Shown: positions 1 to 16,146 of the stretch, one piece after another
Numbering within the stretch: the stretch's first letter is position 1
Layout: every line of letters begins with the position of its first letter
IMG/VR virus record: IMGVR_UViG_3300027804_000049
Coordinates: 50,611 to 114,610 of that record
Length of the DNA stretch: 64,000 nt
Source: a virus
Strand: one strand, 5' to 3'
Program-made: the position numbers and the translations under genes
Notes under the pieces: model-generated
What the model saw: the letters and a program-made list of their open reading frames with translations, nothing else
What the model was told of the DNA's origin: nothing
The model's database searches: none

Positions 1-890
1 CCATGAAGACGCTTGGACATTGCCTCTGCGACTTCAGACATGTTGTTGATTGTGCTGCCCGCTGTGTATCCAGGAATGTCAGCGCCAGCCGTAATAGCTA
101 CGGTAGCCGCTGAAGTCTGGAGTGATGGGCGGCGATCCGCTGGAGCTTCAATTACTTCAGTAACTGTAGCTTCAGTCTCGTTTGCGGCGGCGGTCACTGG
201 TGCCTCCTGCTCCTTCTGCTCATTTTGAGCAACTTGGGTTGTTTCTGGGGTAGCTGAAACTTCGATTTCAGCTGATGCTGCAACAGGTTCTGTCGCAACT
301 TCTGCAGCTGGTGCCTCTACGTTTTCAGTTGGTTCTGCTGAAAGTTCGGCTTCTGGAGTTACCTCGGCCACTGCTTCCGCAGGAGTTTCTTCTGCAACAG
401 CAGCTTCTGCAGCTGGTGTTACTTCAGTAGCAGCAACTTCTTGAGTTGCTACAGGTGTTTCTGCTGGGGTTGAAAACTCAGATGCCTCTTCCACAGTAGT
501 TGACGCTTCGGCCATTGGCTTATCCTCTTCTTTTTCTTCTTTCATAACTGGAGCAGCAGGAGCCTCTTCAGGCATTTCCTTCTCCTCTTTATTACTGTCA
601 GAATCGGTTTCGCCTTCAGGCATTTCTTCCTTCATTTCGTCACCCTTAACACGCATTGCGGCTTCAGCGGCGCGTGCAGCAAGCTCTTGAGCTTGTGCCT
701 CACGACGAGAAATTTCACCACGTACTGTGTCAAGCATGTCTGCCAATGAGGTCATGGCGTCTACTGTCTGCGGAGATGGATCCTCCTTTTCAACCGTTTC
801 AAATTCGCTGACGATAGCACTCTGTAACTCAACAAGCTTTTCAGCGTCGAGTTCAGAAAGCTGGTCTAGCATTTCTTTTATACGGTCCAC
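1..890 (-). CDS. Major capsid protein with long N-terminal scaffold-like region (5' part only; runs off window)
   Basis: Not in the ORF track because it is truncated. GTG at 890 after AGGAGG. Open frame MDRIKEMLDQLSEL...acidic A/E/P/T region...VAITAGADIPGYTAGSTINNMSEVAEAMSKRLH. Lies directly downstream of the protease gene. Confidence 0.75.
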   Translation of the reverse strand, partial: MDRIKEMLDQLSELDAEKLVELQSAIVSEFETVEKEDPSPQTVDAMTSLADMLDTVRGEISRREAQAQELAARAAEAAMRVKGDEMKEEMPEGETDSDSNKEEKEMPEEAPAAPVMKEEKEEDKPMAEASTTVEEASEFSTPAETPVATQEVAATEVTPAAEAAVAEETPAEAVAEVTPEAELSAEPTENVEAPAAEVATEPVAASAEIEVSATPETTQVAQNEQKEQEAPVTAAANETEATVTEVIEAPADRRPSLQTSAATVAITAGADIPGYTAGSTINNMSEVAEAMSKRLH

Positions 891-1018
891 TGTCCCTCCT
901 CCGGGCCAGTCATGATGAACAAGATTTGTTAGTTCATCTCGCTAATCAGTCCAAGGCCGAGGGACTCTACGCGGGTTGCGTGGAGGCACTCTACCTGGAT
1001 TGAATAATACATTATATT

Positions 1019-4000
1019 TTAAGTTAAGAGTCGGAGAAGCTTGCTCAATTCTGAGGAAATCTCAGCTTGAGAGAAATAATCTCCACCTGACATAAACGAC
1101 TTGAGTCCTGTAGTCGCCTCATCAGCCTCGTCCTTTCCTATCTTTTCTTCTACCCTTGGGATCATATCTTCGATAAGACCTTTTAAGGCCGGAGGAAGAT
1201 CGCTGTAGCGGATCTTCTCCGTGTCGCTTCCAAACGGCAATGGGAGATTTGCAATGGTCTCTCCCAAGGCTCTTGCCGAGGTGCGAATATTTTCTATTGA
1301 GTCTGGGTTAAGTGCACGGGTATCAATTCTGTCAACTATGGAGATAACGTCGCCTGCGGCTCTCGCTGCCTCCATGTAGTTTCCAGCGTTGTCAAGGTTT
1401 TCGGCCTTTTCAATTTTGTCGACTACCTTGTCAAGTCCAACGTCGCCAAGGTCCTGCTTTATACGAGCTAGAACTTGACGAAACTTACCTTTTGCATCAC
1501 GCGGCTGAGTCTTGCCAGGCACGTACTTACCTGCCTGAACGTCTGTTACTTCTGCGAACTCAGCCGCTGATGCTTTTCCCAAATCGTTTTGCTCCTCGTT
1601 TGAATAAGCCATTCCAGCGGTCTCAAGAGACGCTATCATTGCGATGCGCTCGCGTAGATAGGCCACCTCTTCACCAAGTTCTTGGCTTGATAACGATTTC
1701 CATTTATCTGGAATTAAGTCTGGACGGTCAAGTTGACGAGCGCGCTTCATGATGTGGCGTCTAACAGCCGCACGCTTGCCTGGCTTTGATCTTCCGTAAG
1801 CTTGAATTGAATCCTTCAAGGAGTCGATGTTTGTAATGGGGTATGAACCGTCTTTAAGAGCGTAACCTTTCTTAGCAAGTTTCTGACGTCTCTCTCGGGA
1901 GATGTAGCCAAACTCGTCATCAAACTTTTGTACTCCAAAAACTCTAGAATACAAGGCATCTGCACGAGCGGAAAGCTCTGCGGCATGTGCCTCCTTAAGA
2001 GCTGTGAAGCGCTCACGAGCAACGTCCGCTTTTGATGAAAGTTCAGCTTGTTCTAACTGCTCCAGTTTTTGTATACGAGAGGTCAAATCTGCGATTGGAT
2101 CTGCCTTCATGCGTGCAAGAACTCCTGCGCCAGCCGCAACAAGTGCCATAACCGCACCTGAGGCAACGCGAGCACGGGCAATAGGGAACCCTGGAACGTT
2201 TACCTGGCAAACCGCTACAAGCTCAAGTTTACCGTTAATTGGACGCCAATCACCAGAAGGTGCAGACGCACGAACTGCGCGAACCTGCTCCGGTGTAGTT
2301 CCTGGACGTAAAGCTCCTGATACCCAGATACCAAAGGCATCTTCTCCAGTATGAACGTCCGCAAAGGCAGACGCGGTGTCATCGTAGTGACGCACCGCCT
2401 CATGAGCGGAAGCCTCAAGTGAGGCATGTCCGCCTGCTAGAGTTAGTTGTCCAACAGGAACGTCTGTTCCGTCGTCTGTGCGAACTACACCTGTATGAAA
2501 ATACGCGTAGTTGCTTCTTGAACGTGGTGGCTTTGTGCCAAATGACATTCCGATATGATCTACATGCCACGCTGCAATATGACCAAATACACGACCTTCG
2601 TCGTCAACGGTCAATGGAGTTGGCTTGTCGAGTTGCGGATTGTCAAACCACGAACGCGGTGGTACGACTGGGATTGATCCTGCCACTAAGCCACAAGCGA
2701 CAAGCGCTGAAGCCTCTACAGGATCCATCTCGTCGACATATACGCCGTCCGGGATCACTGTTTCCTCCTGATTCTCGTCTTCGACGAGGTAGATTTGGCA
2801 CTCTTGGAATGCCGGTTTTGGTACGAGTGTCACTGCCATAACTCGCGCATGCGTAATCACAAGTTTGTCAGCTCCAATCTTACCACTGTCTTTTTCAGCC
2901 AGTTCAGGCACTTCTTGACTTGCCTCGAACTGGTCGAGATCCGCAGAAACTCCACGGATAAAACCATTACTTATTAAACGCTCTGCTTCCTTACCATATT
3001 CTCCAGAGTCAAATACGCCGTGCGCGTTTCCAATTCCACCTTCTACACGTTCCATGTGATCAATACGTCCAATTACAACTGATCCATTGTGTCCTTCGCC
3101 AGTTTCAATTTGCCACATCAATGGCAAAGGTAATTCACGAATTTCTATTGCACCTTTCTTAAAGGTACGTCCATCGCCAGTTTCAATCTCCTCTGGAATT
3201 ACAAGAGGAATCTTAAACTTTGCACCTTCTGCTGTTGTCGTCTCTTCTTCAAGATGCCCTGCTGCAGTAAGAACTCGTCTACGAGCATCTGCCGCTCGAG
3301 CAGAAAGAATAGATGATTGAAGAATCTCATCTACAGAAAGTAGTCCGCGCTTCTTTTTACCAATGTTGTTTTTGCTTCCTGGCCAGGTACCTGTCATCTC
3401 CTTGTGACGAAGAGCGCAGTAGCCTTTCGCGCGAGGACCCATGTACTTCTTAAGGTTGCGATAACAACGCGTCCAATCACCTGGAGTATTCCAACGAATC
3501 TTTATAACTCCGCCTTTACCGATTGTCCAGTAGCGACGTAAGTTTTCTGCATTTCCTCTATTGCGATCTAAGCCACCAGCTGCGGTTAGGAACATTCCAT
3601 TTTTACCATTCCAAAGGACTGTAATAAACTCAAAATCCTTTACAGATGCAGTTACTGGAGCTATTCCATCAACTTGCTCAATGACTGTTTTAAGAGATGC
3701 ACCATCAAGAGGAACTACAGGAGGCGGAGTTGCAGACTTCATATCAGCAAGTATTCGCTCGTCACGCACCCATTTTTTATCCTTGCGAATATAAGTCATC
3801 GCATCAGTTGAGGTAGAGCTAGCTGGGACTAATGACACTAGCTCATAAACAGCGCTAGGGTCCGTATCTGAAACAACTGCAAAAAACACAGGTTGTACGT
3901 CAGATGTTTCAGGTGATATCTCCTTAGACTCACCTGGAGAAACGGCGCTTGTGATGGGTTGATAATACATTTTGTTTGGGTAGTAATATTCGCCGTCTGA

Positions 4001-5644
4001 ACCTTTAACCTTCTTGTTTAAGAAACTTGCAAGAGCTGGGTGTTTATATGGATCAAGCTTAAGCTTAACTCCAGTTAATTTCTCTAGCTCTTTAAGATAA
4101 GGACTCTTTGAAACTTTTTCTATCTGATTTTTTCCAGTAATAACCTTTGGGCCAGATCCGTCCGAGCGAGACTCAAACCCTTCTGTCTTATTTGCATCAA
4201 ATGCGTCACGTTGAGATTTTACCCAGCCTGGCCAATCACCAAGTACTTTTCCCATATCTTCAGAAGTCATTGCTGGAAGAGTTCCAGGAATCTTAGCTCC
4301 GGGACGATCGATAGGAACGCGAGGTTCACCAAGAATACCTGACGTGTTAAGGGGAGTTATATCTACAGGCGCAGTTTTTTGAGCGCTAACTGAAGACTCT
4401 GGTTCTGTTGCAGTCGCAGGAACATCTACTACATCTCCTGAATCAAGTTGTACTCTAACACTTTGCTTTTCAGGATCAATTGCTACTATGTTACCAGATC
4501 CGCGTTCGGCGTCTCCACCAACAACTACACGTGATCCTTGCTTTGAAAATCTTCCGGTTTTATCGCGTACTTGTTTTGCAGCTTTTTCAGACCTTTCCTC
4601 GGGAGTGTAGTCTCCGTCTCCTTCGGTTTCGCCTTCAGCGGCAGCTATAAGCGAGTCAATAAATTCTAAGTCTAACTCGTTAGCTGCAGCTGCAAATAAC
4701 TCGGCTTCCTCTTCATCAATGTCAAAAACTGAAACTGGTCTAAATGGATCTTCTTGGAAGCAGGCGCTTAAAAAGAACGCAGACTCTGCATCAATTTCAA
4801 TGTGAACCTTTTCTACTGAAAGACTCTCTTCGTCGTCTAGCGCCATGTCATAGCTAGCAAGGTCTTGGTTTACATCATCTAATGTGTTCCAAGTTCCTCC
4901 GTCCCAGACTTTAACGTCGTAGTTCTCATCAATCTTGTATAGGCGATCAATTCCAGAGCCGTCCATACGCATACGAGCAATAAACTCAACTGCTTCTAAA
5001 TTATGCTCAAACGCGCCTAAGTCCGTAGGGTATCGGGTGTTAACTGCATAATCAAACTCGTCCTCTTGGTATGAGCTGTCTGCGTATCCATCTGCGCTTA
5101 ATGACTTTTTGTTTTCTCTTTCAACGATGGCACGCGCCCATCTCCACGCGGTGTCGCCACCCCAGAGAGCCCACGCAATACGCCCATTTGACGGAAAACC
5201 GTCTTCTCCTGGCGAGTAACCTTTTGCCTTCTTATCAATCTCATGACGAGGGAAATACTTTGCAATATGACGGACCTTTTCAATTCCAATTTGTCCTCCT
5301 CTTGAAAGAGTGCGGGCTGTGTTAAGACCTACTGGAGTTCCTCCGCGCTTGTGCTCCTTGCGCCACTCAAGAGCTTTATTTGCCTCCTCTTGAGCGCCTT
5401 TAGGAATTGTGTATAAACGACGAGCGCCACCCAATATACTTACGTCTAATGTAGTAAGTGCGGCACTAGCTAATTCAAGTTGGGAGTCAGTAATATCTAG
5501 ATCTTCATCGCTCCATGTAGCAGAGGCAGTTAATGAAGATAAAGCTCCTTGATTAACAACTAAGTTTTCCTCAGAGTTAATCACAACACCTTGGGTGTCG
5601 TTTGAAAAAAGAACAAGAGGTCCGCTTTTTCCTACTACATTCAT
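1019..5644 (-). CDS. Multidomain capsid maturation (prohead) protease fusion, 1541 aa
   Basis: Core ETGDGRTF..LPLPLMWQ..GHNGSVVIGRI..GVSADLD..AVTLVPKPAF followed by the GRVFGHIAAW..SGDWR domain typical of actinophage head proteases. Extra modules GRIAWALWGGD, LRRYW..KIRWNTPGDWTRC and DGSYPI. Position between portal and capsid gene. Confidence 0.8.
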   Translation of the reverse strand: MNVVGKSGPLVLFSNDTQGVVINSEENLVVNQGALSSLTASATWSDEDLDITDSQLELASAALTTLDVSILGGARRLYTIPKGAQEEANKALEWRKEHKRGGTPVGLNTARTLSRGGQIGIEKVRHIAKYFPRHEIDKKAKGYSPGEDGFPSNGRIAWALWGGDTAWRWARAIVERENKKSLSADGYADSSYQEDEFDYAVNTRYPTDLGAFEHNLEAVEFIARMRMDGSGIDRLYKIDENYDVKVWDGGTWNTLDDVNQDLASYDMALDDEESLSVEKVHIEIDAESAFFLSACFQEDPFRPVSVFDIDEEEAELFAAAANELDLEFIDSLIAAAEGETEGDGDYTPEERSEKAAKQVRDKTGRFSKQGSRVVVGGDAERGSGNIVAIDPEKQSVRVQLDSGDVVDVPATATEPESSVSAQKTAPVDITPLNTSGILGEPRVPIDRPGAKIPGTLPAMTSEDMGKVLGDWPGWVKSQRDAFDANKTEGFESRSDGSGPKVITGKNQIEKVSKSPYLKELEKLTGVKLKLDPYKHPALASFLNKKVKGSDGEYYYPNKMYYQPITSAVSPGESKEISPETSDVQPVFFAVVSDTDPSAVYELVSLVPASSTSTDAMTYIRKDKKWVRDERILADMKSATPPPVVPLDGASLKTVIEQVDGIAPVTASVKDFEFITVLWNGKNGMFLTAAGGLDRNRGNAENLRRYWTIGKGGVIKIRWNTPGDWTRCYRNLKKYMGPRAKGYCALRHKEMTGTWPGSKNNIGKKKRGLLSVDEILQSSILSARAADARRRVLTAAGHLEEETTTAEGAKFKIPLVIPEEIETGDGRTFKKGAIEIRELPLPLMWQIETGEGHNGSVVIGRIDHMERVEGGIGNAHGVFDSGEYGKEAERLISNGFIRGVSADLDQFEASQEVPELAEKDSGKIGADKLVITHARVMAVTLVPKPAFQECQIYLVEDENQEETVIPDGVYVDEMDPVEASALVACGLVAGSIPVVPPRSWFDNPQLDKPTPLTVDDEGRVFGHIAAWHVDHIGMSFGTKPPRSRSNYAYFHTGVVRTDDGTDVPVGQLTLAGGHASLEASAHEAVRHYDDTASAFADVHTGEDAFGIWVSGALRPGTTPEQVRAVRASAPSGDWRPINGKLELVAVCQVNVPGFPIARARVASGAVMALVAAGAGVLARMKADPIADLTSRIQKLEQLEQAELSSKADVARERFTALKEAHAAELSARADALYSRVFGVQKFDDEFGYISRERRQKLAKKGYALKDGSYPITNIDSLKDSIQAYGRSKPGKRAAVRRHIMKRARQLDRPDLIPDKWKSLSSQELGEEVAYLRERIAMIASLETAGMAYSNEEQNDLGKASAAEFAEVTDVQAGKYVPGKTQPRDAKGKFRQVLARIKQDLGDVGLDKVVDKIEKAENLDNAGNYMEAARAAGDVISIVDRIDTRALNPDSIENIRTSARALGETIANLPLPFGSDTEKIRYSDLPPALKGLIEDMIPRVEEKIGKDEADEATTGLKSFMSGGDYFSQAEISSELSKLLRLLT

Positions 5645-6591
5645 GCCTGCTCTTTTCCTGTCTCATCAGTGACTGGTCCGCCCGCAATCCATGCATCGCA
5701 TGTGCGCGAGGCGGCACACTTAAAGTCAAGGGCCTCGCAATATCCTAATTCGCCTTGAACCACCACGTCATAGGAATCTTCAACGTTTCCGCCGCCTTGC
5801 TGTAGGCCTTGGGCAATACAGTCCTTCATCTTAGAGGTAATAATAAACGCAGCACAGTTACCACATCTGCTTGTTTTAGCATCTTCAATAGAAACGCTCC
5901 AACGAGTTGCCTTTTTCTGCCAAAACTCGTCGTTAGGCTCCTGTGGATTTAATGGGCCATAACCAATGTTGTCAATTGCGTTTTGGCGGTTTTTAAGATT
6001 TAGTTGAATATCCTGAGTTGCAGGAGGGCAGGCGTCTCCCTCTGCTGCCGCAACAACTGGCTCTTCAGACTTTTCTCCATCGAGGTACTTAACAAGATAA
6101 TCATAAGGTCCGTTTGGATCAACTGACCCTAGCGTTGCAAACATGAGCTCAGTCATGCCATCAGCTGTAATTTTTTGGTCAGGGTCCTCGCTTGAAAGTT
6201 GATCATACAAATCTGGATAATCTGCAAACACCTGATCAATTTCATCGTAGGTTTTAACGTCCATTTGTTGGCGACTATCACTATAACTTGCCTCTCGTAC
6301 TCTTTTAAGTTGTACCTTTTCAGAGTCTGTGGCAAGTTTTAAGCTCGACTCTTCAAAGGGTTTTGAGAATCTAAAATTTCTTAAGTTGAATGTGGCAATG
6401 TCAAGAAGATACTCAATGTCTAGATCTTGTCCTTCCTTGACCTTACTCATAACAAGGTTTACTCTTTTTACTGGGTCAAAGATTTGACGTTCCTTATCTT
6501 CAAAGACATAGACAAATTTTTTGCTATCTGCAGCTATAGAAAACACATGAGTGCCATCACTCAAATCGTAAGCTCTAATTACCTTTACCAT
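5641..6591 (-). CDS. Head-module protein with C-terminal Cys-rich domain
   Basis: 316 aa; CPPATQD..GYGPLNP..RCGNCAAF..GYCEALDFKCAASRTCDAW; overlaps the protease start. Confidence 0.7.
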   Translation of the reverse strand: MVKVIRAYDLSDGTHVFSIAADSKKFVYVFEDKERQIFDPVKRVNLVMSKVKEGQDLDIEYLLDIATFNLRNFRFSKPFEESSLKLATDSEKVQLKRVREASYSDSRQQMDVKTYDEIDQVFADYPDLYDQLSSEDPDQKITADGMTELMFATLGSVDPNGPYDYLVKYLDGEKSEEPVVAAAEGDACPPATQDIQLNLKNRQNAIDNIGYGPLNPQEPNDEFWQKKATRWSVSIEDAKTSRCGNCAAFIITSKMKDCIAQGLQQGGGNVEDSYDVVVQGELGYCEALDFKCAASRTCDAWIAGGPVTDETGKEQA

Positions 6592-6602
6592 AGTGTCTCT
6601 CC

Positions 6603-9600
6603 TTAGTCCCAGTACTCTAGATCCATTACGTTTTCAAGTGCCTTGTATTCGTTGGTGCCTTTAGTTGTAAGAGATTTTAAGCGCGCAGTCATAGCGTCCT
6701 TAAAGGCATCATAAGTTCCCCACTTTTCAATGATCTTATCCATTTCAAAACCTTTAGGTTGATATAAGGGGTTATTAAGATTTCTTACAATCTTGTCTGT
6801 TTCATTCTTATAAATCTTTATCATACCTTCTTGCCCAATGCGACGTAGCATCACTGGAATGTGCTCAAGGTACACATCTGCTTCTTGTATTGTTCCACCT
6901 TGGAAATATTCCTCTATAGAAGTAGTGTCTTTCTTAAGCTCACCAACTGTGTTATCAACTGGGAATATGCGAAGCTTATTGGTTACTTGATCAAATGCTA
7001 CCATCCAGTTTCCATCATGTCTATCTTGGTTGTTTCCAAGCATATCAAGTATTGACATTCTAATTAAGTCTTCCGGTGCATCAAGAGAAGTTACAAACGT
7101 AACTGGATTAGAAACGTTTACATCTTCACCTCTTGCGTTTTTTACTCCCTTACGAAACGCTGTTGATGCGTTGACTGCTTCATTTACTAATGGAATCACA
7201 GATCCTGCACGGCTCATCACAACCATGTTGCGGTCATTTCTTCCTACTCGCACATCGTGGATACCTTGCATCCCTGCTGCCTTTAGTAGTATTGATGCCT
7301 CAAGCTCAGTTACTCCTGCATCTGTGTCTGAAAAATTAGAAACAAAGTTATCATTTTTCACGTAAAAGACTTGCCCGCTTGCGATATGTGTTACTTCAAA
7401 TGTAGCATTTACTCCAGACTCGACACCACTGAGCTGGCGAGCGCTAAATCCAGAGTCTTTTAGCTTTGTGCCACTGCCGCCTACGTCATCAAAAAAGTCT
7501 TGTACTCTCAGTTGAGAAAGCACCTCTGCAGAGTTAAACGGATCTGAGTATCCATGGTCAGCTATGTATTCGTTCGTAAGACCTTCACGTAAGCGAAAAA
7601 CATCATCTAATGGCATACTTCTGTCTTTGTCTAAAATCTGTTGACTTATATAGTCATTAAGAGCATTTTTTGCACTTGGAGACAAAGTAGCAAGTGATCT
7701 ATTGTTTCTTATAACGTCGCGTATTTGGCTGTAGTAAGGGGAAACTTGTGGGCTATTTCTAAAGGCGTCTGACTCAATTACAGCAATGCCATCTGAGGAA
7801 ACATTGGGTATGTTTTGCTTAGACTTAACACGTTTTTCAGCATTTCCTATTTGACTATTGTTTGCTGCTTGAACTTGTTCTTTAGCAGTAGGCTCTAGGT
7901 TTTTAGTTCCGTTCCAGCTTTCACTTATCAGTACTCTTTTACCTAGCCAGTCATTAGCGCCTGGACGCCAACCTACGCGTGCAAATTCCATAGGAGTTGG
8001 CACCCTAGACATATCATATTCACCATTTGGCAATTTAGCTGCTTTAAGTTTTTCAACTAAAATTTCAACGTCACTTTCTTCTTCTTTATTTCTTACTTGT
8101 CTTCTAAAGTCTGACATGTTTATAATTTCTGCACTATTTTTCCAGTTAAATCCACTTAGTGCCCAGACAAATCCGCCTTGGTATTCTCTTCCACCTGCAG
8201 CGTAGACTTCTACTTTTTTAATCCCGTTTGCAATGTACCAATTTTCTGTGTAACGATTAAACGCAGTTGCAAATCCTGTCTTTTTACGACCAACTCTGAG
8301 ATACTGATTTTTAGCGTATGAGTCTGCTATTACAACGTTTCCATTTTCATCTACCTTTTTCTTTACTACCAGGTAGCGCTGTATCTCACCTACGGCTGTA
8401 CCAGACACATCTCTTACTACCATACTTGTATTTATTGTGTAATCAAATCTTCCATTTGCTATCTCTTCTTCAGTAGCTCCTGAAAGTGGCGTAACATTAG
8501 TACTTAAATTGTTAATTGATAATGAAAATAATTCTCCGCCAAATGTGACACCTTCGCGAACTCCGTATATGTCGCCAACTATCTCTGTTAGACGATCTTT
8601 TGCCTCACGAGATGCAGCAGCGTCACCTTCATTAAGTATACGTGAAAAAGTGGAGACTTGTTCTTCCAAACTTTTTAGTGATATGCGCTCATTAGCAGCT
8701 TTTGCAATTTCTGCATCCCGTGAGCCCCAGGCTGAAAAATCAGATTGAACTGCATCTTTATTTGTGCGGTCTTTGATGTAGTCAGGAATGGTGCTATCAT
8801 CATTAACTCCAGCAGTCTCGCCTGAGCGAGCTATGCGCGGAGGCGCTGCTACAGGCGCATCAAGGCGTTCTTGAACATCTCTTGCAGACGGCTGTGATTC
8901 TGCTTCTACTACTGTAGGAGCTTTTCCACTTGCATCTGAAATTGCAAGCACCTTTGACGCAGAACGCACCGCGGTGCTTCCATCATCAAATCTAATACGT
9001 AAGTACTCTGGATCGTTTTGTACTGCTACAACAGTTCCAACTTGTCCGTCCTTTAATGCTTTAACGCGCGCGCCTTTACCAACCACAGCACCATCGCGAT
9101 CTCTAGTGGTGTTGTTTGGAGAGTACCCTGGTTCTTTAGGTCCTGGGTACACGTACTGTGGAGCTGCAGGAGCTGCAGGAGCTGCAGGAGCTTCAGGTTC
9201 AGGAGTTGCAGGAGTTTCTTCTTCTTTTTCTTCCGCATCAACGTTTGTTTGATAGATGCTTTCACGCTCTTGAGGAGTAAGATCTCTCCAGCCAGCTTGG
9301 CCAGCTCCTCTTGGATCTGAGAACCAGTCTTGTGAAACTGTAAGCTTTGTAATCGAACCATCGCGTGCAATATAAAGGTCTTCCCATGGATCAACGTATG
9401 CAAGTGATCCGTCAGAAGGTAGATACGAAATTACGTTAATTCCGCTTGGAAATAAGTCGTTTCCAATGTCATAAAAATCTTTTATTGCATCAATGTTATC
9501 ATTAAACATATTTGCTACTTGAGGTGACTCAGGTACTTGAGCTGGCTCGGGTGCTTCTTCAAAGTCATTTGATTCTCTGCTAATTCGCTCTAATACATCA

Positions 9601-11792
9601 TTTGTATTGATGCCTTGTAATTGAAGTGCGTCACGAATTCCTTCGACTGGAACTTCGTATGTTCCTGTGTCGAGATTATCTGGATTATAGATTAAAAATA
9701 CAGATCCTGATCCGTCTGTAATTGCAATCTCAAATTGCTCAAGCAAATCTGCTGTAATAAACTCTCGCGCGATGTACTCTGGATTGTCAGAGTATCCATT
9801 TTCATCCAAGTCCGCAACGCTTGGCTCATACGGATTAGGATCAATAGCATAGTAGTCAGTGTTACCACCAAAATCATTTGGAATATTGTAAATTAACTCA
9901 CCTGGAAGAGGGCTTTGCTCGCCTGCGCTGTCATCTCTCTCTAGAGGGTTTGCTGCCTTTTGCTCTATCTCTTCTGGTGTTGATGATTCCTTAATTTGAG
10001 AGATTTCTTCAAATATGTCATCAATTAACGCTTGTTCATCTGGGTCTGGTTTTCCGCCCGCTGCGTCATGTAACTTGTTTAGGTTGTTGCGATTCCCATT
10101 AACTGCGTCATAAGCATTTGCAATAACGCGATTAGGATCTCCACCTGCTAAAAATATTGCGTTATATAAAGCTTCAGCTGGAACAAATTCGTCACCTTTA
10201 TTAAATTCTAGCTGTCCTGCCCCGCTACCATTTGCGCGTCCTGCAGCAGGGGCAGGAGAGTCGACAACATCATCAACTTCTTCAAGTTCTAGTAACTCAC
10301 CGTCATCGCCAATGCTTGACTCAATAATTTCGTTAAAAATCGCATCGTCTCTGTCGCCAATTAACGCTTGAGTAAGCGCGACACTGAGTTGAGGAAGTGT
10401 GTACTTCACCGCTAGACGGTCTGGGTCGTCTGTAAAGTCTGTTGATTCTTCGTCAACGCGACCATCAGGCTCAAAGTCAACTGTGCGTAATTGAAATGCG
10501 CCGCTAGGAACATCAAACTCATTGAAAAGTGCAGGAGCATTAGGTGCGCTAAGATTTTGTGGAATTACAGCTTTAGGCTCTCCATCTTGAGCTTTAACAC
10601 TTTCCTTAAACTTGTCATAGTCAGGCGAGTCCTTCTCTGCAAGAGATTGTGCCTCTGCCCATGATTCAACATCTCCAACCTTGTCACCAGTATTTCCGTC
10701 CTTATCAAGACGATGAAGTGCAAAGCCAGACTCATTTGGAATTAGCTTATAATCATCATCAGATGTGAAAGACCCATCGTCCTGTTTTGTCCATCCTGTA
10801 GGCGCATCAACCTTTGTCTTAAGTAGGTCGTCAAGAGTTGGAATATCTTTAGAGGAAGCTTCCTTTGCGGTTGGCTTACGGGTTGATGGCTCTCTACTTA
10901 TCTTTTCTCTCTTTAAAGTTTCTTTTGATATACGCGCCTTAACTGGAGTGGCATTAGCGCTTTCAATCGAGTAAATTCCGTCTGGTATCGTGTTATCTCC
11001 ACGAACTTCAATATAACCTGCATTAACTATTTCCTTACCTTCAAATATTGAATATCCACTATTAGCATTTATACCAACAAAATTTCCTGCCGCATTTCCA
11101 ATATCTCCATTAGGAAGTCTAAAGTTAAAGTTAAGTCCTCGACCCATTTCGACCCAACGTCCATAACGGTCACGCCACTGCAATGCAACACGCGCACGAC
11201 GGGCCACACTTGAGTTTCCACTTGAAAAACCAAATGCAGCTACTAAAGTTTTAATTGGACTATCATCAATCTTAAAGAATGAAGAAACCGCTCCTGCCAG
11301 TGTAACGCGTAAGCGAGCAAATGCGTGGCGACGTTGAATTGATCCTGGCTCAAGCGAGTGAGCGGTTGCAATTAAAGGACGAACTGAGTTATCAATAGAC
11401 GGATCTGACGAAAGCCATTGAGCGTATCTTTCTTGAGCAATATCACTTGATGCAGTTACATTTAATAAGGACCTAGGGTGGCCAATTGGTAGTAGGTCAA
11501 TATTAGATGAATACTCGTATGCCTTAAACGTATCTTGATGTGCTGTAATAAACTTTGCAACCTCGCGAAGTACGCCAAGCTCGCGTGACTTATCTGACAA
11601 CGATGAAAGACTGGCATTTGCGCGATTCATAACTGTAAGCGCATTGCGAGGAATAACTCGACGCTCAATTGGAGTGTTCTTATTTGCCTCTGCTACAAGA
11701 GATAAAACCTTTTTACGAAGAGATAAAGGTTTATATCCCTTTGGGTAGATTGCCTTACGATCTACCATCTTACTTATTAACTCTTCGTACAT
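6603..11792 (-). CDS. Large polyvalent virion-associated protein (KOW/SH3-like, GNAT-like, C-terminal HipA/PI3K-like kinase)
   Basis: 1729 aa. Kinase motifs FYVK, NQDRHDGNW, FPVDN. GNAT-like KTGFATAF..GIKKVEVYA..GGFVWALSGF. Duplicated internal domain. Inside the head operon. Confidence 0.65.
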   Translation of the reverse strand: MYEELISKMVDRKAIYPKGYKPLSLRKKVLSLVAEANKNTPIERRVIPRNALTVMNRANASLSSLSDKSRELGVLREVAKFITAHQDTFKAYEYSSNIDLLPIGHPRSLLNVTASSDIAQERYAQWLSSDPSIDNSVRPLIATAHSLEPGSIQRRHAFARLRVTLAGAVSSFFKIDDSPIKTLVAAFGFSSGNSSVARRARVALQWRDRYGRWVEMGRGLNFNFRLPNGDIGNAAGNFVGINANSGYSIFEGKEIVNAGYIEVRGDNTIPDGIYSIESANATPVKARISKETLKREKISREPSTRKPTAKEASSKDIPTLDDLLKTKVDAPTGWTKQDDGSFTSDDDYKLIPNESGFALHRLDKDGNTGDKVGDVESWAEAQSLAEKDSPDYDKFKESVKAQDGEPKAVIPQNLSAPNAPALFNEFDVPSGAFQLRTVDFEPDGRVDEESTDFTDDPDRLAVKYTLPQLSVALTQALIGDRDDAIFNEIIESSIGDDGELLELEEVDDVVDSPAPAAGRANGSGAGQLEFNKGDEFVPAEALYNAIFLAGGDPNRVIANAYDAVNGNRNNLNKLHDAAGGKPDPDEQALIDDIFEEISQIKESSTPEEIEQKAANPLERDDSAGEQSPLPGELIYNIPNDFGGNTDYYAIDPNPYEPSVADLDENGYSDNPEYIAREFITADLLEQFEIAITDGSGSVFLIYNPDNLDTGTYEVPVEGIRDALQLQGINTNDVLERISRESNDFEEAPEPAQVPESPQVANMFNDNIDAIKDFYDIGNDLFPSGINVISYLPSDGSLAYVDPWEDLYIARDGSITKLTVSQDWFSDPRGAGQAGWRDLTPQERESIYQTNVDAEEKEEETPATPEPEAPAAPAAPAAPQYVYPGPKEPGYSPNNTTRDRDGAVVGKGARVKALKDGQVGTVVAVQNDPEYLRIRFDDGSTAVRSASKVLAISDASGKAPTVVEAESQPSARDVQERLDAPVAAPPRIARSGETAGVNDDSTIPDYIKDRTNKDAVQSDFSAWGSRDAEIAKAANERISLKSLEEQVSTFSRILNEGDAAASREAKDRLTEIVGDIYGVREGVTFGGELFSLSINNLSTNVTPLSGATEEEIANGRFDYTINTSMVVRDVSGTAVGEIQRYLVVKKKVDENGNVVIADSYAKNQYLRVGRKKTGFATAFNRYTENWYIANGIKKVEVYAAGGREYQGGFVWALSGFNWKNSAEIINMSDFRRQVRNKEEESDVEILVEKLKAAKLPNGEYDMSRVPTPMEFARVGWRPGANDWLGKRVLISESWNGTKNLEPTAKEQVQAANNSQIGNAEKRVKSKQNIPNVSSDGIAVIESDAFRNSPQVSPYYSQIRDVIRNNRSLATLSPSAKNALNDYISQQILDKDRSMPLDDVFRLREGLTNEYIADHGYSDPFNSAEVLSQLRVQDFFDDVGGSGTKLKDSGFSARQLSGVESGVNATFEVTHIASGQVFYVKNDNFVSNFSDTDAGVTELEASILLKAAGMQGIHDVRVGRNDRNMVVMSRAGSVIPLVNEAVNASTAFRKGVKNARGEDVNVSNPVTFVTSLDAPEDLIRMSILDMLGNNQDRHDGNWMVAFDQVTNKLRIFPVDNTVGELKKDTTSIEEYFQGGTIQEADVYLEHIPVMLRRIGQEGMIKIYKNETDKIVRNLNNPLYQPKGFEMDKIIEKWGTYDAFKDAMTARLKSLTTKGTNEYKALENVMDLEYWD

Positions 11793-13186
11793 TAGCTATA
11801 TTTTTTCTTTGGAAGCAGATCTGCATCTTGCGAGTCATAAAGATCTGTTGCAAGTTCATATGCTCTACTAAATGGAACGTCTCCGTCACGAACACCGCGT
11901 AGCCATGCACCGCGCAACGCAGGAATTATCTCGTAGCCAAGACCGGAGTACTCTGCCATCGAGTAAATTGCATGCTCTGGAGAACCGTATTCATCAAGTG
12001 ACTTTAATGCAACCTGCATAAGCTCATGCTGCATCATTGAAGCCTCTGCCCTTGAGGACTTTGGATGTGCCTTTGGTAAAAGATCATTGTCCTGCTTGTA
12101 ATTTGGATTTGCAGGAGACCCTGAGCGTAAAAGTTTTAGAAACGCGTTAACGCGAGCCATGGCCCAGCCGTCGCGAGTCATGCCTGGTCTATGGCTAGAT
12201 GAAAATGCGCCTGACCCTCTGCGATACACTGCCTTTAACATTGGTAACGTTGCCTTACGTCCTGGCTTTGCGTTCTTGTTGTGCTCTACTATCTTTTTAC
12301 GAAGTGAATTTTCTGTTTTTTGTGAGAATACAATTTTCTTTCCACCTGAGGCTGATCCCTTTGGATTTTTCTTTGATCCGTAGATGCGGTCTTTTTTAGG
12401 AGCGCGGCGCGATGCTGCAAGTGAGCTGTCCGCTGCATCAACAGGAACACAGTTTGGAACCATGTTTCCGTTCTTGCCCTTCTTCATTCCGACTTGCTTG
12501 TATCCGTCCCAACAAGGGCTCTTTCCAGCTGCAATTAAGGCGTTGTACTCTTCGTATGAGCTTAGATCATCAAATGCCTCATTAAAGGCATCAACGCTTG
12601 CCGTATCTTTACTGCCTGCGGTAACAACTCCGTCAGGAATCAACGCGAAGCGGCAGTAGCCTTCTGGCTCAACCTCGGCGGCAATAATCTTACACTCGCT
12701 GCCGCCAACATATAAAATACAGTTGGCGCACTTAACGCCAATCTCCTTGTTTTCATTATTAGCGGCAGATTCATATCCTGCCCAAACACCTGTGTCATCA
12801 GAGTTAAACTTTCCATATTTTTGAGTAATTTCAATAAGCGCGTCGGCAAGATCTTGCTCCTCAGGAACAACAATTCCTGCAGCTAATAAAGCGTCCTCCT
12901 GCTCAATCTTAAATGTTTCATACATCTCGTCGCGAGCGTGATCGTCGTAGTCTTCGCTATACACGTTTATCGACTTCATACGCATTGGACACATACATGT
13001 AATTGGGCAAGGGCATTGACCTGACGGACAATTTTCGCATGAACAGTCGTTTTCATCGCAGTAAAGGCAGTCATCAACAGCTGCCTGTTCGTCCATATCA
13101 GACGAGTCTTCATTTATCTTTGAATAAAGATCTGCCATACGTAGCAAAAGCTCAGCTGCTTCTTGCTTGGTGTTATCGTCATGCAT
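11792..13186 (-). CDS. Multimodular head-associated protein
   Basis: Probable start ATG 13186 after GAGGT (ORF track starts at 13201). Modules: Cys-rich N-term, KCANC..CKII..GYCRF, PCWDGY..VPNCVP, LKAVYRRGSGAF..WAMARVNAFL. Confidence 0.7.
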   Translation of the reverse strand: MHDDNTKQEAAELLLRMADLYSKINEDSSDMDEQAAVDDCLYCDENDCSCENCPSGQCPCPITCMCPMRMKSINVYSEDYDDHARDEMYETFKIEQEDALLAAGIVVPEEQDLADALIEITQKYGKFNSDDTGVWAGYESAANNENKEIGVKCANCILYVGGSECKIIAAEVEPEGYCRFALIPDGVVTAGSKDTASVDAFNEAFDDLSSYEEYNALIAAGKSPCWDGYKQVGMKKGKNGNMVPNCVPVDAADSSLAASRRAPKKDRIYGSKKNPKGSASGGKKIVFSQKTENSLRKKIVEHNKNAKPGRKATLPMLKAVYRRGSGAFSSSHRPGMTRDGWAMARVNAFLKLLRSGSPANPNYKQDNDLLPKAHPKSSRAEASMMQHELMQVALKSLDEYGSPEHAIYSMAEYSGLGYEIIPALRGAWLRGVRDGDVPFSRAYELATDLYDSQDADLLPKKKYS

Positions 13187-14870
13187 TTGGAGGTACCTCA
13201 TTTGGGGGAGTTGCTTGCTCTGGTGTTGCTGGTGTTGCTGGTGTTTGTTGTGCTGCCTGCTCTAAGATTTGTTCAATCTCTGGTGGAACTGGCGCTATGG
13301 ATTGTGCCTGTTGAACTTCGCGAAGCTTATTCATAAGTTCAGGTGATACTGCACTTATCATCTGCTCGGTAAGCTCTGGTGATATTGAACCCTTTTCTAT
13401 CAAAAGACGAAGTGCTAGTTCCTTTGACTCTGGAGCATCAGAGCTTGCAAAACCGTGAGCGCGTCTCCAGGCATCAAATGAAACTGCCATGCGATCAAAC
13501 CCGGAGTCTGCGTCTGCAGCTCTATCATTACGTGTTGCAACTTGAGATGGGTCATACCAGAGACAGACGCGCTTAACGTCTTCCTCTCTAAAACCTGCAG
13601 AGATGAGCGCGGGACGAAGATACATAACTGTCAACGCGTCAACAATGATAAGCATCATTGGCTCAATGTGCGCCTTATATAGTGCCTCATCAATTTGTAA
13701 GGCATTGGAGTATTTAACGTTGGCTAAACCTGTAACAACATCCTTTGGCACGTCTAGACCTTGAAGGATACGCTCTAACACACGGTCAGCGCGTTGCGCA
13801 AGTGATGGGTCAAACGATCTTTCAAACTTAAACTGCTTGATTCTGTCACCAAGCTCTGCAGGACCGCGAATGATAAGAGGAACAACTGCGGATGCAGAAT
13901 CCTCGTCACGAATTGGAGTAGTCATTGCATCAATGAGTTGATCTTCAAACTCGTCAGCTGCCTCCTCGGCAGTCATGCCAGGACTTAACTCGTTCTCATC
14001 ATCATAAGGATAATCTGGGTCTGGACTTGCTGCAACTGAAAGTCCATCTGGCAAATAAAGAGCGCCAGCGTTAAGTCGTGAGCGTGCGGTTGCTCTAAAG
14101 GTACGATTTAGAAGTAGAAGCTCTGCGCAAAGATCGAGTAGACCGCGCATGCTCGAATCTGCTTCCTCGGAGTAACGTGGGTGAGCTCTCCAAATGCGTC
14201 CAACAAAACTTGTATTTGGAAGCTTTAATGCGGCAGCTGCGTTTTTGCCGCCTGATGTAACAACGTCACGACGTGGAATTATTAGATATTGATTACGTGC
14301 ATCAACTTGAAGCTCGTCTGTTGAGCGAATATCCCAGCTTTCAGGAACACCCGTTCCTTTACGTGCAGGGAATTGAACAAGATAGCACTCACCTGAAACC
14401 GATAGGTTTAGGGCTGCATCTCGTAATAGTCCAGCCTGTCCGCCGTATGCAGAGTCTAATCGCGCTAACGCGCGCTCTGCAGCAGCAGCTAATCTCTGAT
14501 CAACAACATCACTGTTGTTTACAGGGACAGGCGACTCCGCGGGATTATCAACCGCGGCTGCATAAAGACGAATACGTGAAACAACTGATGCAACAAGGTT
14601 AAATGCATACTTAACTTCGCCAATGGCGTCATAGTACTCCCAGGCTTCACTCTGCCAATCAGAGGATCCGCCTGTTCTACGTTGCTTAAATCTTTCAACC
14701 TCGCCCTTATCATTTATGGCGATTTGTACTGCCGCTGCAGTTATAGGTCGCGGAGCAGAGTATGGTAATGATTGCGCGTATGACATATCAGAAATGACAA
14801 CGGGAGTTGTTACATTACGTTGTGGTCTTTGATTACGAGGAGGAAATTCCTCGCGACGAAAAATTGCCAC
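13179..14870 (-). CDS. Portal protein
   Basis: 563 aa; WQSEAWEYYDAIGEVKY..SRIRLY, GRIWRAHP, ARSRLNAG as in actinophage portals; between TerL and head genes. Confidence 0.88.
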   Translation of the reverse strand: MAIFRREEFPPRNQRPQRNVTTPVVISDMSYAQSLPYSAPRPITAAAVQIAINDKGEVERFKQRRTGGSSDWQSEAWEYYDAIGEVKYAFNLVASVVSRIRLYAAAVDNPAESPVPVNNSDVVDQRLAAAAERALARLDSAYGGQAGLLRDAALNLSVSGECYLVQFPARKGTGVPESWDIRSTDELQVDARNQYLIIPRRDVVTSGGKNAAAALKLPNTSFVGRIWRAHPRYSEEADSSMRGLLDLCAELLLLNRTFRATARSRLNAGALYLPDGLSVAASPDPDYPYDDENELSPGMTAEEAADEFEDQLIDAMTTPIRDEDSASAVVPLIIRGPAELGDRIKQFKFERSFDPSLAQRADRVLERILQGLDVPKDVVTGLANVKYSNALQIDEALYKAHIEPMMLIIVDALTVMYLRPALISAGFREEDVKRVCLWYDPSQVATRNDRAADADSGFDRMAVSFDAWRRAHGFASSDAPESKELALRLLIEKGSISPELTEQMISAVSPELMNKLREVQQAQSIAPVPPEIEQILEQAAQQTPATPATPEQATPPNEVPPNA

Positions 14871-14911
14871 TTATAAAACTCCTGTCATTAAGATAACGGA
14901 ACGCATTAACA

Positions 14912-15223
14912 TTACCTGTCAAGTCGTGCGGTTATTAAGCCTGCTAGCGCAGACAGGGCAAATATACACCCTATTAGGAATACCGTACTTGGAAAAAACG
15001 CGTAAAAAACCATAGTTGGAAGTGCGATCCAAAGGGATATACACCACTCACAGGTAAACAGGTATCCGATTGAGCTTGAGTGCGCAGGTTTCTTACTAAA
15101 GACCCAGTCACGCACGGGTTCGAATATTGTGTCAATTATTACCAGGCGCGTTAGGCGATAAACCAAGAGCGCAAGCACGACGAAGTGAAGGGCTGACATA
15201 TTTTCTATTTCATATAGGTTCAT
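14912..15223 (-). CDS. DUF1360-like membrane protein
   Basis: YRLTRLVIIDTIFEPVR..LFTCEWCISLW; hydrophobic; next to portal. Confidence 0.7.
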   Translation of the reverse strand: MNLYEIENMSALHFVVLALLVYRLTRLVIIDTIFEPVRDWVFSKKPAHSSSIGYLFTCEWCISLWIALPTMVFYAFFPSTVFLIGCIFALSALAGLITARLDR

Positions 15224-15603
15224 GATGTTGGGTCCTTTATTGAGTCCATTGTTTTATAAGGGCTAAATGACCGTAGGCGACTGCCACAGGTACATCCTTG
15301 CACGTGCTTAAATGCAACTATCTTCCCAGATACGGTAAGCGCCTGGGAGTCAAGTTTTTTATCTCCGGACCAGTTTAGATCCGCGAGTCGTTCTGAGAAT
15401 ATAAGGCGAGGTCCTCCTGAGGCGTCTGCCGCAACAACAAGGACCATGCTTGAATCATCCTGCATAACTATCGTTCTTACTCTCTCAAGATAGCGGCCTC
15501 CGTTTGGAACCTTACTTGAGGTTGTTGCTTCCTTAAAATCTTCCATTACGTTTGCGGGGATTGCAACTATCGTGGATGGAAAGAAGTCATGGATAATCTT
15601 CAT
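15220..15603 (-). CDS. Hypothetical protein
   Basis: 127-aa ORF with 4-nt overlaps to both neighbours; C-terminal GCTCGS. Confidence 0.7.
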   Translation of the reverse strand: MKIIHDFFPSTIVAIPANVMEDFKEATTSSKVPNGGRYLERVRTIVMQDDSSMVLVVAADASGGPRLIFSERLADLNWSGDKKLDSQALTVSGKIVAFKHVQGCTCGSRLRSFSPYKTMDSIKDPTS

Positions 15604-16088
15604 ACTGTAAGCGCCCGATCTACTCTACGTTTCATTGCTCGATAGGTAACGCCTGAGACGCGGGCGAGCTCTGAGACCGTGACTCCCTTTAGGTATAGGT
15701 TCTTGGCGAGACTTGAAAGTTCGTGATTGGCATTAAATGAGGCTGAGGCTGGTGACGTGCGGGAACGATAACGTCTTGCCAGCGGTGATAATCTTGCGAT
15801 GCGTAACTGCTCATCAATTGGGATTCCTGGACTCTTAGGACGAATACGTCTTATACGTGGCGCCTTAAGAGGCACGTGGGGAATAGGTGAGATTGAGGTT
15901 TGATTCTTTACGTTGCGAACTGCCCAGGAACGTATAGTTGATCGCGTCTTTATGGGAGTAAAGGCATTTGCAATTGATTGATATGACCAGCCTACTGCAA
16001 CAAGCTCTTGAACTCTAAAACACAAGGCGTCCTTTGTAAGTGTTATGAGCAGATCTCTCTCGCTTTTAGGCAGTAGCGGTGCGGCCAT
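15600..16088 (-). CDS. Tandem HTH DNA-binding protein
   Basis: GWSYQSIANAF and GVTVSELARVSGVTYRAMKRRV. Confidence 0.65.
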   Translation of the reverse strand: MAAPLLPKSERDLLITLTKDALCFRVQELVAVGWSYQSIANAFTPIKTRSTIRSWAVRNVKNQTSISPIPHVPLKAPRIRRIRPKSPGIPIDEQLRIARLSPLARRYRSRTSPASASFNANHELSSLAKNLYLKGVTVSELARVSGVTYRAMKRRVDRALTV

Positions 16089-16146
16089 GGAGTTACCTTA
16101 ACACGCGCTCGTCAAAGCGTGTACAAACTGCTCGGTGTTTTGTACT

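Follow-up and report, generated by a model that had tools for sequence, protein, structure and literature searches.

Head proteins of an uncultured actinophage share a short motif at their junctions, which probably serves the phage's own prohead protease as recognition site; we infer that the head proteins are diced or trimmed there. The phage, whose hosts are freshwater Actinobacteria, has relatives numbering in the hundreds that mark their module joints in the same way. Its head-assembly operon occupies the first 17.5 kb of the window (the whole stretch of 64,000 nucleotides that was analysed) on the minus strand, in the order terminase, portal, p469, p1729, p316, a 1541-aa protease-scaffold fusion (p1541) and capsid protein. 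This order puts the protease gene between those for portal and capsid protein and links it to the scaffold. All peptides listed in an earlier, sequence-only reading of this DNA were found in the proteins stated. The sequences are best described by the consensus [L/I/V/M]-[T/V/I]-A-[A/S/C/G], often followed by G or A, and their logos fit Phi-x-A-[A/S/C/G], in which a hydrophobic P3, Ala at P1 and a small P1' depend on the assumed register of the cut.

In the six head proteins we counted 45 occurrences of [LVI].A[ASG] against 25.4 expected from shuffles (z=4.0), and none of 500 shuffles reached 45. Five permuted-order controls gave no excess in the same proteins (z -0.01 to 1.3), nor did the motif itself in the other 36 proteins of the window (z=0.9). 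Taken singly, only p1541 (15 vs 8.1 expected) and p469 (9 vs 2.0) reach significance, and p1729 with the loose motif does not (9 vs 7.5 expected). The sequence-only reading had pointed to two Ala-rich non-head proteins for comparison, and these show no significant excess either (42647: 13 vs 8.1, reached by 60 of 1000 shuffles; 52450: 5 vs 9.9). Head ORFs from 80 related metagenomic loci contain the loose motif at 1.5x, the 5-mer at 9.4x and the strict form, which was tuned on the very data set it was scored on, at 2.6x, with tail ORFs of the same phages at about 1.0x and thus without excess. One short motif is therefore common to capsid, portal, scaffold/protease and internal proteins, with no excess in non-head proteins. 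Proteins rich in Ala, Leu and Val could match a loose four-residue pattern through composition, as seen inside folded domains (p1541 606, 1076, 1124) and at the chance level of p1729. Such an origin is hardly credible and is rejected for the core sites, given that shuffles, permuted orders, Ala-rich controls and tail ORFs all lack the excess and that conservation at the sites greatly exceeds the 6.3/57 shown on average by random positions in the p1541 alignment.

Table 1 Features of the head operon and candidate motif sites (window coordinates).
Feature	Residues (aa)	Position	Strand	Remarks
p1541 (P0001), protease-scaffold polyprotein, 1541 aa		1019..5644	-	PHROG 859, 18402, 29860 matches; AF2 models
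Protease domain 1, assemblin/T4 gp21 fold	804-959	2768..3235	-	AF2 pLDDT 80-93
Protease-like domain 2, 'capsid maturation protease' core	985-1167	2144..2692	-	phrog_18402, E 3.7e-57
p1541 L-x-[AS]-[SA], cleavage doubtful	38-41	5522..5533	-	Leu 52/55; pLDDT~90 helix
p1541 LSAD, weaker site	182-185	5090..5101	-	29/57 homologues; start of pLDDT<50 stretch 183-205
p1541 (L)IAA-A	333-336	4637..4648	-	Ala at position 3 in 54/57; edge of pLDDT<50 stretch
p1541 ITSA, weaker site	564-567	3944..3955	-	30/57 homologues; within pLDDT<50 stretch 563-570
p1541 VTAS	664-667	3644..3655	-	36/57 homologues; pLDDT<50 linker
p1541 LTAA-GG	686-689	3578..3589	-	46/57 homologues
p1541 LTAA-G, just ahead of protease domain 1	792-795	3260..3271	-	motif in 38/57 homologues
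p1541 LVAC-G, just past protease domain 1	981-984	2693..2704	-	57/57 homologues
p1541 LVAA-GA, between domain 2 and scaffold coiled coil	1168-1171	2132..2143	-	
p1541 MIAS, weaker site, scaffold region/C-terminal domain boundary	1336-1339	1628..1639	-	24/57 homologues
p316 VVAA-A, joins N domain to Cys module B	179-182	6046..6057	-	
p469 LLAA-G, VTAG-S, LIAA-G, VDAA, LAAS-R	105, 193, 222, 254, 261	12410..12889	-	
p1729 LIAT-A	140-143	11364..11375	-	L/V/I - V/L/I - A(30/31) - S/A/T - A(30/31)
p1729 LVAA-F, end of putative N-terminal propeptide	183-186	11235..11246	-	A-A invariant, 31 sequences, gap-rich stretch
Portal ITAA-A, past variable N-terminus	43-46	14733..14744	-	
Capsid VTAA-A, ITAG-A	232-235, 266-269	84..197	-	end of low-complexity N-terminal delta-like region, about 265 aa

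The fusion protein p1541 is composed of N-terminal modules, protease domain 1, protease-like domain 2, a coiled-coil scaffold and a C-terminal domain. As a whole it has no match in Pfam or NCBIfam, and PHROG families annotated as maturation protease match it. We found 82 full-length homologues and aligned the 57 left once near-identical ones were removed. The alignment contains five conserved motif sites with variable flanks, the five permuted controls giving 0-1 each. Conservation is strong at 333, 686, 792, 981 and 1168 and moderate at 38, 664, 182, 564 and 1336. That the motif marks domain boundaries, as first read from the sequence, also holds across homologues: the core sites stand out as conserved islands against variable, low-pLDDT linkers, and BLAST HSP end-points, fusion/fission junctions and pLDDT<50 segments agree. 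AF2 models show pLDDT<50 segments at 182, 333, 564, 664, 686 and 792, and several sites form the C-terminal end of predicted helices; at 792-795 the helix end is followed by a pLDDT<50 stretch. The stretch with 981 and 1168 was left unfolded by AF2, so low pLDDT is uninformative there. The sequence RDKTGRF lies 24 aa past the 333-336 site, with a KOW/Tudor-like barrel, and the counterpart of 182-185 in Microbacterium phages is LTAS. The 1336 site is present in DSL-LC01 and four aligned Microbacterium phages, and BLAST HSP ends cluster there; after aa 1204 the 57-sequence alignment has no conserved motif peak. SLTAS at 38-41, one of the peptides first listed, is conserved, yet it lies inside a confidently modelled region and lacks support as a site. 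Matches at 606, 316, 976, 1076, 1124 and 1369 likewise lack support as sites, being in-domain or unconserved.

Modules of p1541, p469 and p316 recur elsewhere as ORFs of their own or fused in a different order, with the motif at every fused joint, and two Cys-rich modules (A and B) move among three different head proteins. Module B has about 18 different upstream partners, and in its fused contexts the motif is found <=20 aa upstream in 34/40, the remaining six having VDAS or VNAS; where module B opens an ORF the motif is absent (0/4). Stand-alone N-domain ORFs end in a stop codon, without the motif there. Module A is inserted at the p1541 686 site in three loci (L069, L075, L077), with LTAA/LLAA-G upstream and MQAA/VQAA-GG downstream, so that the motif is duplicated. 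The p469 sites bound module A and a basic RRAPKK module, HSP end-points fall at 100, 190, 220 and 260, and module permutations carry junction motifs. Judged by these sequences, p1541, p469 and p316 resemble diced polyproteins. Such extensive shuffling with the motif at the joints would also fit a by-product of DNA-level recombination joints, a reading that we regard as very unlikely. In the p1541 1168 site, an invariant A-L-x-A-A-G-A with Val as x in 55/57, every synonymous codon form is in use; at the amino-acid level the motif is degenerate (LTAA, ITAS, IVAA, MQAA) and hence implies no conserved nucleotide sequence, and the joints showed no conserved nucleotide word. The motif also occupies non-shuffled portal and capsid positions. 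Invariant residues are thus encoded by varying synonymous codons, which places selection at the level of the protein, and the data support a head-specific junction motif under such selection.

Sites in p1729 are confined to the first 190 residues, with chance level elsewhere. Together with 41 homologues (1500-3300 aa), p1729 contains the strict motif at 5.0x in the first 250 residues and at 0.80x in the bodies, the same as the reversed control. NVTAS at 112, also on the first list, is weakly conserved and lacks support as a site. Profile matches from Pfam, PHROGs and NCBIfam revealed no peptidase families in p1729. Because the motif is limited to the N-terminus and at chance in the body, p1729 is, judged by its sequence, apparently a single large protein that carries a propeptide at its N-terminus, and not a polyprotein. 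The sequence-only reading had extended the boundary motif to every head protein and taken the giant ORFs for polyproteins cut into about 15 products; this finds support for p1541, p469 and p316 but fails for p1729, and the count of about 15 is unsupported. The portal appears to have a single N-terminal site, [LMI]-T-A-A-A at 43-47 in 9/9 sequences covering these columns (10 aligned), including Microbacterium and Arthrobacter phages. In the capsid protein PVTAAA is a conserved island within an E/A/T/P/V-rich stretch, and AITAGADIPGY is nearly invariant in 46 sequences.

AF2 helices that end exactly at p1541 182-185, 333-336 and 792-795, often with Gly next as in Schellman caps, could instead indicate a structural joint, namely a helix C-cap or a hinge, by which fused modules could fold independently of each other in proteins that stay uncut. 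We consider this unlikely. The excess is lacking in tail proteins of these phages, and in portal and capsid protein the sites occupy Pro-rich or low-complexity stretches instead of following helices. A helix cap belonging to the upstream module ought to persist where that module ends in a stop codon, which it does not, and a joint leaves the limit to the first 190 aa of the giant proteins unexplained.

A prohead-type protease in the operon, also proposed from the sequence, was corroborated by modelling. The domain 1 model aligns with T4 gp21 (5jbl) at VIA-align Z 10.1 (rmsd 3.2, 121 aligned residues) and with the VZV protease at Z 9.3, on a background in which unrelated folds start from about Z 6. 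H852 and S900 show no variation among 49 sequences (A1 columns H213, S261) and are kept in gp10 of mycobacteriophage Cooper. Against Pfam Peptidase_S78 domain 1 scored 13.2 bits, below the cut-off of 21 (E 0.096). The core of domain 2 is common to 871 actinophage records (tblastn) and has S77, S80 and Mu-I as ESM Atlas neighbours; AF2 gave no fold for domain 2 and predicted a 55-residue helix directly C-terminal of it. Motif sites bracket each protease domain and precede the long helix. A-L-V-A-[C/A]-G comes after both domains, and A-L-V-A-C-G, 22 aa C-terminal of domain 1, has by sequence the position of a release site. The models thus support a motif-flanked protease of assemblin/gp21 fold encoded in the same operon. 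Another cutter, namely a host protease, domain 2 alone or a phage peptidase such as the Ntn-type one near 22.8 kb, seems rather unlikely. Domain 2 is the part common to the 871 actinophage genomes and is annotated as maturation protease, which speaks for it; domain 1, however, has the clan fold plus the invariant His and Ser, the motif fits the P3-hydrophobic rule of its protease clan (MEROPS clan SH: S21, S77, S78, S80), the sites bracket both domains, and a general host protease is hard to reconcile with the head specificity.

Related signatures are found in the cultured phage Cooper (34% identity), with ALVAS in gp10 at the counterparts of the p1541 981 and 1168 sites, SLTAAS in the portal and VTAASLTAAGG in the capsid protein. 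In T4, gp21 (S77) cuts L/I-x-E, and IPI-III and Alt carry capsid-targeting propeptides. T4 gp21 is the best structural match to domain 1, and as in T4 one short motif runs across capsid, portal-region, scaffold and internal proteins and a large enzyme-bearing internal protein has an N-terminal propeptide (here probably p1729). Unlike in T4, Ala and not Glu precedes the presumed cut; T4 substrates are separate small genes, whereas here they are apparent multi-module polyproteins, and a fusion of protease to scaffold is not known from T4.

The herpesvirus assemblin precursor (pUL26/pUL80a; MEROPS S21) resembles p1541 in the domain 1 fold (Z 7-9 to the VZV, PrV, HCMV and KSHV enzymes) and in a protease fused upstream of a coiled-coil scaffold. 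The likeness extends to the assemblin motif (V/L/I)-x-A↓S, with a hydrophobic residue two before Ala, then Ser/Ala, right past the protease domain; the assemblin R and M sites are YLQA-T and VQA-S (PMC4498786). In contrast to assemblin, p1541 belongs to a bacterial virus and has two tandem protease-like domains and about 800 aa of extra modules upstream of the protease; there is no motif near the scaffold C-terminus and hence no assemblin-like M site, and Ala, Gly and Cys are as common as Ser after Ala.

Many head and ejection proteins of SPN3US are processed at A-X-E, with several motifs per propeptide, and a single motif across many head proteins is a likeness to the phiKZ/SPN3US gp245 (S80) system (PMC10052503). 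P1 is Glu in those phages and, in the presumed register, Ala here; mapped SPN3US cuts, self-cleavage aside, all release N-terminal propeptides, whereas here the motif also separates apparently retained modules. Shared with HK97-type S78 systems (HK97 gp4; Omega gp14) are the portal-protease-capsid order, a long delta-like capsid N-terminus and weak Pfam S78 similarity. Omega gp14 has no significant similarity to P0001. N-terminal sequencing gave a delta domain of 155 aa in mycobacteriophage Omega (PMC3706429), which in translated gp15 corresponds to cleavage behind a basic residue (EEYR↓DLDR), unlike the Ala motif here. Giant multi-domain virion-associated proteins encoded beside head genes, fused to MuF in relatives such as Cooper (gp10), recall the polyvalent proteins, for which processing into separate units by an in-chain zinc metallopeptidase was proposed (Iyer et al. 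2017, PMC5512222); in the present phage the capsid maturation protease is the candidate cutter instead, and the joints share an explicit motif.

The literature on this phage group yielded no N-termini, virion masses or proteomics, and the cutting itself, the enzyme, the bond and the fate of the products are what we infer from the above. The cutter would be domain 1, possibly together with domain 2. Given the hydrophobic P3 in assemblin (V/L-x-A↓S) and T4 gp21 (L/I-x-E↓), the scissile bond is probably that after the first Ala. Cuts would follow co-assembly into the prohead, where the protease would free itself at LTAA-G, LVAC-G and LVAA-G. The portal would lose about 45 N-terminal aa, the capsid protein about 235-268 aa and p1729 about 143-186 aa, and p1541, p469 and p316 would be diced into free modules that are kept in the capsid or ejected.

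Six proteins of a tailed-phage head operon on the minus strand carry more copies of the motif [LVI]-x-A-[ASG] than their composition predicts. We counted 45 vs 25.4 expected by residue shuffling (z=4.0; 0 of 500 shuffles reached 45). Five permuted-order control patterns with identical residues gave z values of 0 to 1.3 in the same proteins, and the motif itself gave z=0.9 in the remaining 36 window proteins. The sequence-only reading had taken this motif for a prohead-protease site; all the peptides it listed were found in the window proteins, and the two Ala-rich non-head proteins it named for comparison indeed showed no significant excess (42647: 13 vs 8.1 expected, with 60 of 1000 shuffles reaching 13; 52450: 5 vs 9.9 expected). 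Tested singly, the 1541-aa and 469-aa proteins reach significance and no other head protein does; the count in the 1729-aa protein alone is at chance. Using de-duplicated ORF sets from related loci, with tail ORFs of the same phages as the comparison, enrichment in head ORFs was 1.5x for the loose [LVI].A[ASG], 2.6x for [LVIM][TVIL]A[ASG] and 9.4x for [LVIM][TVIL]A[ASC][GA], each vs ~1.0x in tail ORFs. Unbiased 4-mer enrichment in head ORFs was uninformative because their sequences are homologous and conserved domain words dominate.

Features of the head region (window positions unless a locus is named; P0001 and p1729 are the 1541-aa and 1729-aa proteins)
Feature	Position	Strand	Remark
Tailed-phage head operon	1-17568	-	
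Large terminase	16147-17568	-	
Portal	13179-14870	-	
469-aa protein	11792-13201	-	
1729-aa protein	6603-11792	-	
316-aa protein	5641-6591	-	
1541-aa protein	1019-5644	-	matches PHROG families annotated head maturation protease
Capsid protein	3-890	-	first 296 residues in window
Tandem protease-like domains	2144-3235	-	P0001 aa 804-1167
Cys module	12614-12889	-	C-x2-C ... GYC type
Cys module	5641-6045	-	C-x2-C ... GYC type
End of upstream ORF, overlapping protease start codon	5641-5660	-	also in homologous loci
R-D-x-x-G-[R/K/Q]-[F/W]	4567	-	P0001 aa 360-366
R-D-x-x-G-[R/K/Q]-[F/W]	1501	-	P0001 aa 1382-1388
R-D-x-x-G-[R/K/Q]-[F/W]	11174	-	p1729 aa 207-213
Three neighbouring 'capsid maturation protease' CDSs, DSL-LC01	L001 13998-18917		one ORF in window phage
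Cooper head genes with motif at homologous places	L088 4288-8950		

The closest deposited relative is Actinomycetia phage DSL-LC01, a lake-water assembly (57% identity for the 1541-aa protein), followed by ~190 kb Microbacterium phages (~45% identity) and also Arthrobacter phages. Full-length homologues of the 1541-aa protein, at 49-94% identity, are encoded at no fewer than 80 IMG/VR loci. The first CDS split in DSL-LC01, near window aa 600, resembles a frameshift or an assembly error; the second comes after an inserted copy of the Cys-rich module A. Regardless of its module content, the ORF upstream of the protease gene has the C-terminal sequence E-T-G-K-[K/E/N] or one close to it (such as E-Q-G-K-K), probably the translation of a conserved ribosome-binding or coupling sequence.

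Among 57 non-redundant aligned P0001 homologues, the motif sites form conservation islands within variable or gap-rich stretches, strongly at 333-336, 686-691, 792-796, 981-985 and 1168-1173 and more weakly at 38-41, 182-185, 564-567, 664-667 and 1336-1339. Five conserved motif sites lie in variable flanks, vs 0-1 for each permuted control, and random P0001 positions show the motif in 6 of the 57 sequences on average. At site 1168 the sequence L-V-A-A-G-A is invariant while every synonymous codon is in use, so selection is on the amino-acid sequence rather than the DNA. Similar islands are found in the other head proteins. The portal carries [L/M/I]-T-A-A-A downstream of a variable N-terminus in all nine sequences covering these columns (10 aligned), including Microbacterium and Arthrobacter phages. 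In the capsid protein, P-V-T-A-A-A is an island within a low-complexity E/A/T/P/V region and A-I-T-A-G-A-D-I-P-G-Y stands at the start of the conserved body. The low-complexity stretch (aa 150-230, ~80 residues before PVTAAA) varies in length among relatives. In the 1729-aa protein both Ala of [L/I]-[V/L/I/T]-A-A are invariant across 31 sequences and a second site is conserved at 140-144; NVTAS at position 112, also proposed as a boundary, is poorly conserved.

Module boundaries were located from the end-points of BLAST HSPs against all ORFs of related loci. These ends cluster at motif positions, namely at residues 100, 190, 220 and 260 of the 469-aa protein, 170-189 of the 316-aa protein, and 660-690 and 1330-1349 of the 1541-aa protein. 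Module A (469-aa protein residues ~105-193) occurs as a stand-alone ORF of 95 aa and, with the module order permuted, in 469-like proteins; in the protease protein it lies C-terminally (DSL-LC01 and locus L051) or internally (L069, L075 and L077). When inserted at site 686, it is preceded by LTAA or LLAA before G and followed by MQAA or VQAA before GG. The Cys-rich module B (316-aa protein residues ~184-314) follows at least ~18 distinct upstream partners or lies within 469-like proteins. Where the same ORF extends 40 or more residues upstream of module B, 34 of 40 distinct contexts carry [LVIM]-[TVILQS]-[AS]-[ASGC] within 20 residues of module B, and the other 6 carry V-D-A-S or V-N-A-S. None of the four ORFs beginning with module B has the motif, and stand-alone N domains of the 316-aa protein end in a stop codon with no motif there. 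Since the motif is present at fused joints and absent at ORF starts or stops, it is a property of the joint and of neither neighbour; such joint-only occurrence is what a putative processing site would predict.

The Cys modules are the most mobile cargo. The annotation of DSL-LC01 calls one of them a high-potential iron-sulfur protein, and a weak iron-oxidase match comes from NCBIfam (E 0.0077); metal or Fe-S domains within a capsid would be unusual, if true. A further element, R-D-x-x-G-[R/K/Q]-[F/W], occurs 112 times in head ORFs vs 3 times in tail ORFs of related loci, 59 of the 112 copies lying 16-30 residues downstream of a motif site. The six frames of the window hold only three copies, each 12-25 residues past such a site, and in P0001 the element is located before a KOW/Tudor-like small barrel. 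One possible role is that of a functional tag displayed by new N-termini.

The earlier proposal that all these long ORFs are polyproteins is supported for the 1541-, 469- and 316-aa proteins and fails for the 1729-aa protein, whose motif excess is N-terminal only. In a non-redundant set of 41 homologues (1500-3300 aa), an excess of the strict motif is confined to the first 250 residues, at 5.0-fold vs 0.80-fold in the remaining 90,000 residues, the same as the reversed control, and many of these giants have no site beyond residue 190. This distribution matches one large internal protein with a predicted N-terminal propeptide, not a diced one, and is likened to T4 Alt and SPN3US ejection proteins.

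The AF2 model of P0001 residues 640-1240 contains one confident domain, 804-959. Foldseek alone gave weak E-values (0.02) for the protease fold and VIA-align was needed; the best structural match is T4 gp21 (Z 10.1, rmsd 3.2 over 121 residues), and herpesvirus proteases score Z 7-9.3. His852 and Ser900 are invariant, and Pfam Peptidase_S78 matches the domain weakly. Residues 985-1167 are the most conserved part of P0001. Their PHROG match (E 3.7e-57) is to a family labelled head maturation protease, their language-model neighbours lie in the S77, S80 and Mu-I families, and they recur in 871 deposited actinophage genomes, where the usual annotation is capsid maturation protease or a MuF-protease fusion. 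AF2 gave no fold for this second domain in the 601-aa model (pLDDT 30-50), hhalign found no homology signal between the two domains with shallow profiles (Neff ~2), and searches of PDB sequences with the Cooper capsid protein or the protease region returned no match. A 55-residue helix directly follows the second domain, and we read it from the model as the putative scaffold part of P0001.

Sites 664, 686 and 792 fall in low-confidence segments at domain edges; low pLDDT at 981 and 1168 is uninformative and no linker evidence, because AF2 failed to fold that stretch. A second model (residues 1-700) assigns 182-185, 333-336, 564-567, 664-667 and 686-689 to low-pLDDT linkers or their edges, and 38-41 and 606-609 to the inside of confidently modelled structure. 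By pLDDT only, the originally proposed loose pattern marks boundaries at 4 of 7 sites vs 23% of residues, a marginal result (p~0.05 by our own estimate). From the first 700 aa a fold search identified a single module, the KOW/Tudor-like barrel (Z ~8), a common fold.

The pattern recurs in mycobacteriophage Cooper (Cluster B4). Its gp10 aligns across both protease domains (34% identity, E 4e-49) with A-L-V-A-S after each, residues 20-25 of its portal read S-L-T-A-A-S, and V-T-A-A-S-L-T-A-A-G-G stands immediately upstream of the conserved body in its capsid protein. Inspection of this one genome suggests that the putative cutting code extends to a large cultured group, the Cluster B mycobacteriophages.

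In T4, head proteins are processed at a shared motif, L/I-x-E. SPN3US uses a shared A-X-E motif (PMC10052503), and herpesvirus protease-scaffold fusions are cut at (V/L)-x-A|S/T (PMC4498786). For polyvalent virion proteins, processing by in-chain metallopeptidases has been proposed (PMC5512222). The delta domain of phage Omega is 155 aa by N-terminal sequencing (PMC3706429), which on translated gp15 maps the cut after Arg; this HK97-type cut differs from the putative Ala-type site of the window phage. Our literature search found no paper on this motif nor processing data for these phages, and the only mapped actinophage cleavage sites it found were those of Omega and LittleE (HK97-type, after Arg). 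Rosebush is covered by band-level mass spectrometry without peptide positions, and, according to a cryo-EM study of actinophage capsids, the place where the delta domain is cut is not currently predictable. The window phage differs from known systems in having a putatively cut Ala-type site in a phage, in a motif that would both separate retained modules and remove propeptides, and in its tandem protease-like domains.

Overall, a cleavage code is the best explanation of the motif and a probable one, judged from sequences and models. More tentatively, and with the odds somewhat against it, Phi-T-A-A joints may serve plug-and-play cargo with assemblin-like specificity across ~870 actinophages. 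A module with the motif on both sides could then enter a head polyprotein at any position, the protease-scaffold protein included, travel with this carrier into the prohead and be freed as an internal or ejected protein. Cutting would follow the herpesvirus assemblin rule, with Ala before the cut and a hydrophobic residue at P3, and this specificity would be common to the ~870 sequenced actinophage genomes with this protease core; such sharing would hint that A|S-type cutting is ancestral in the phage-herpesvirus protease lineage. Should the motif be cut, it would define what the capsid maturation protease recognises across a very large actinobacteriophage group that includes Cluster B mycobacteriophages, abundant freshwater phages and phages of Gordonia, Microbacterium and Arthrobacter. 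The mature forms of capsid, portal and internal proteins would become predictable from sequence, the loading of unrelated cargo modules into capsids as polyproteins would be explained, and phage and herpesvirus protease specificity would be connected.
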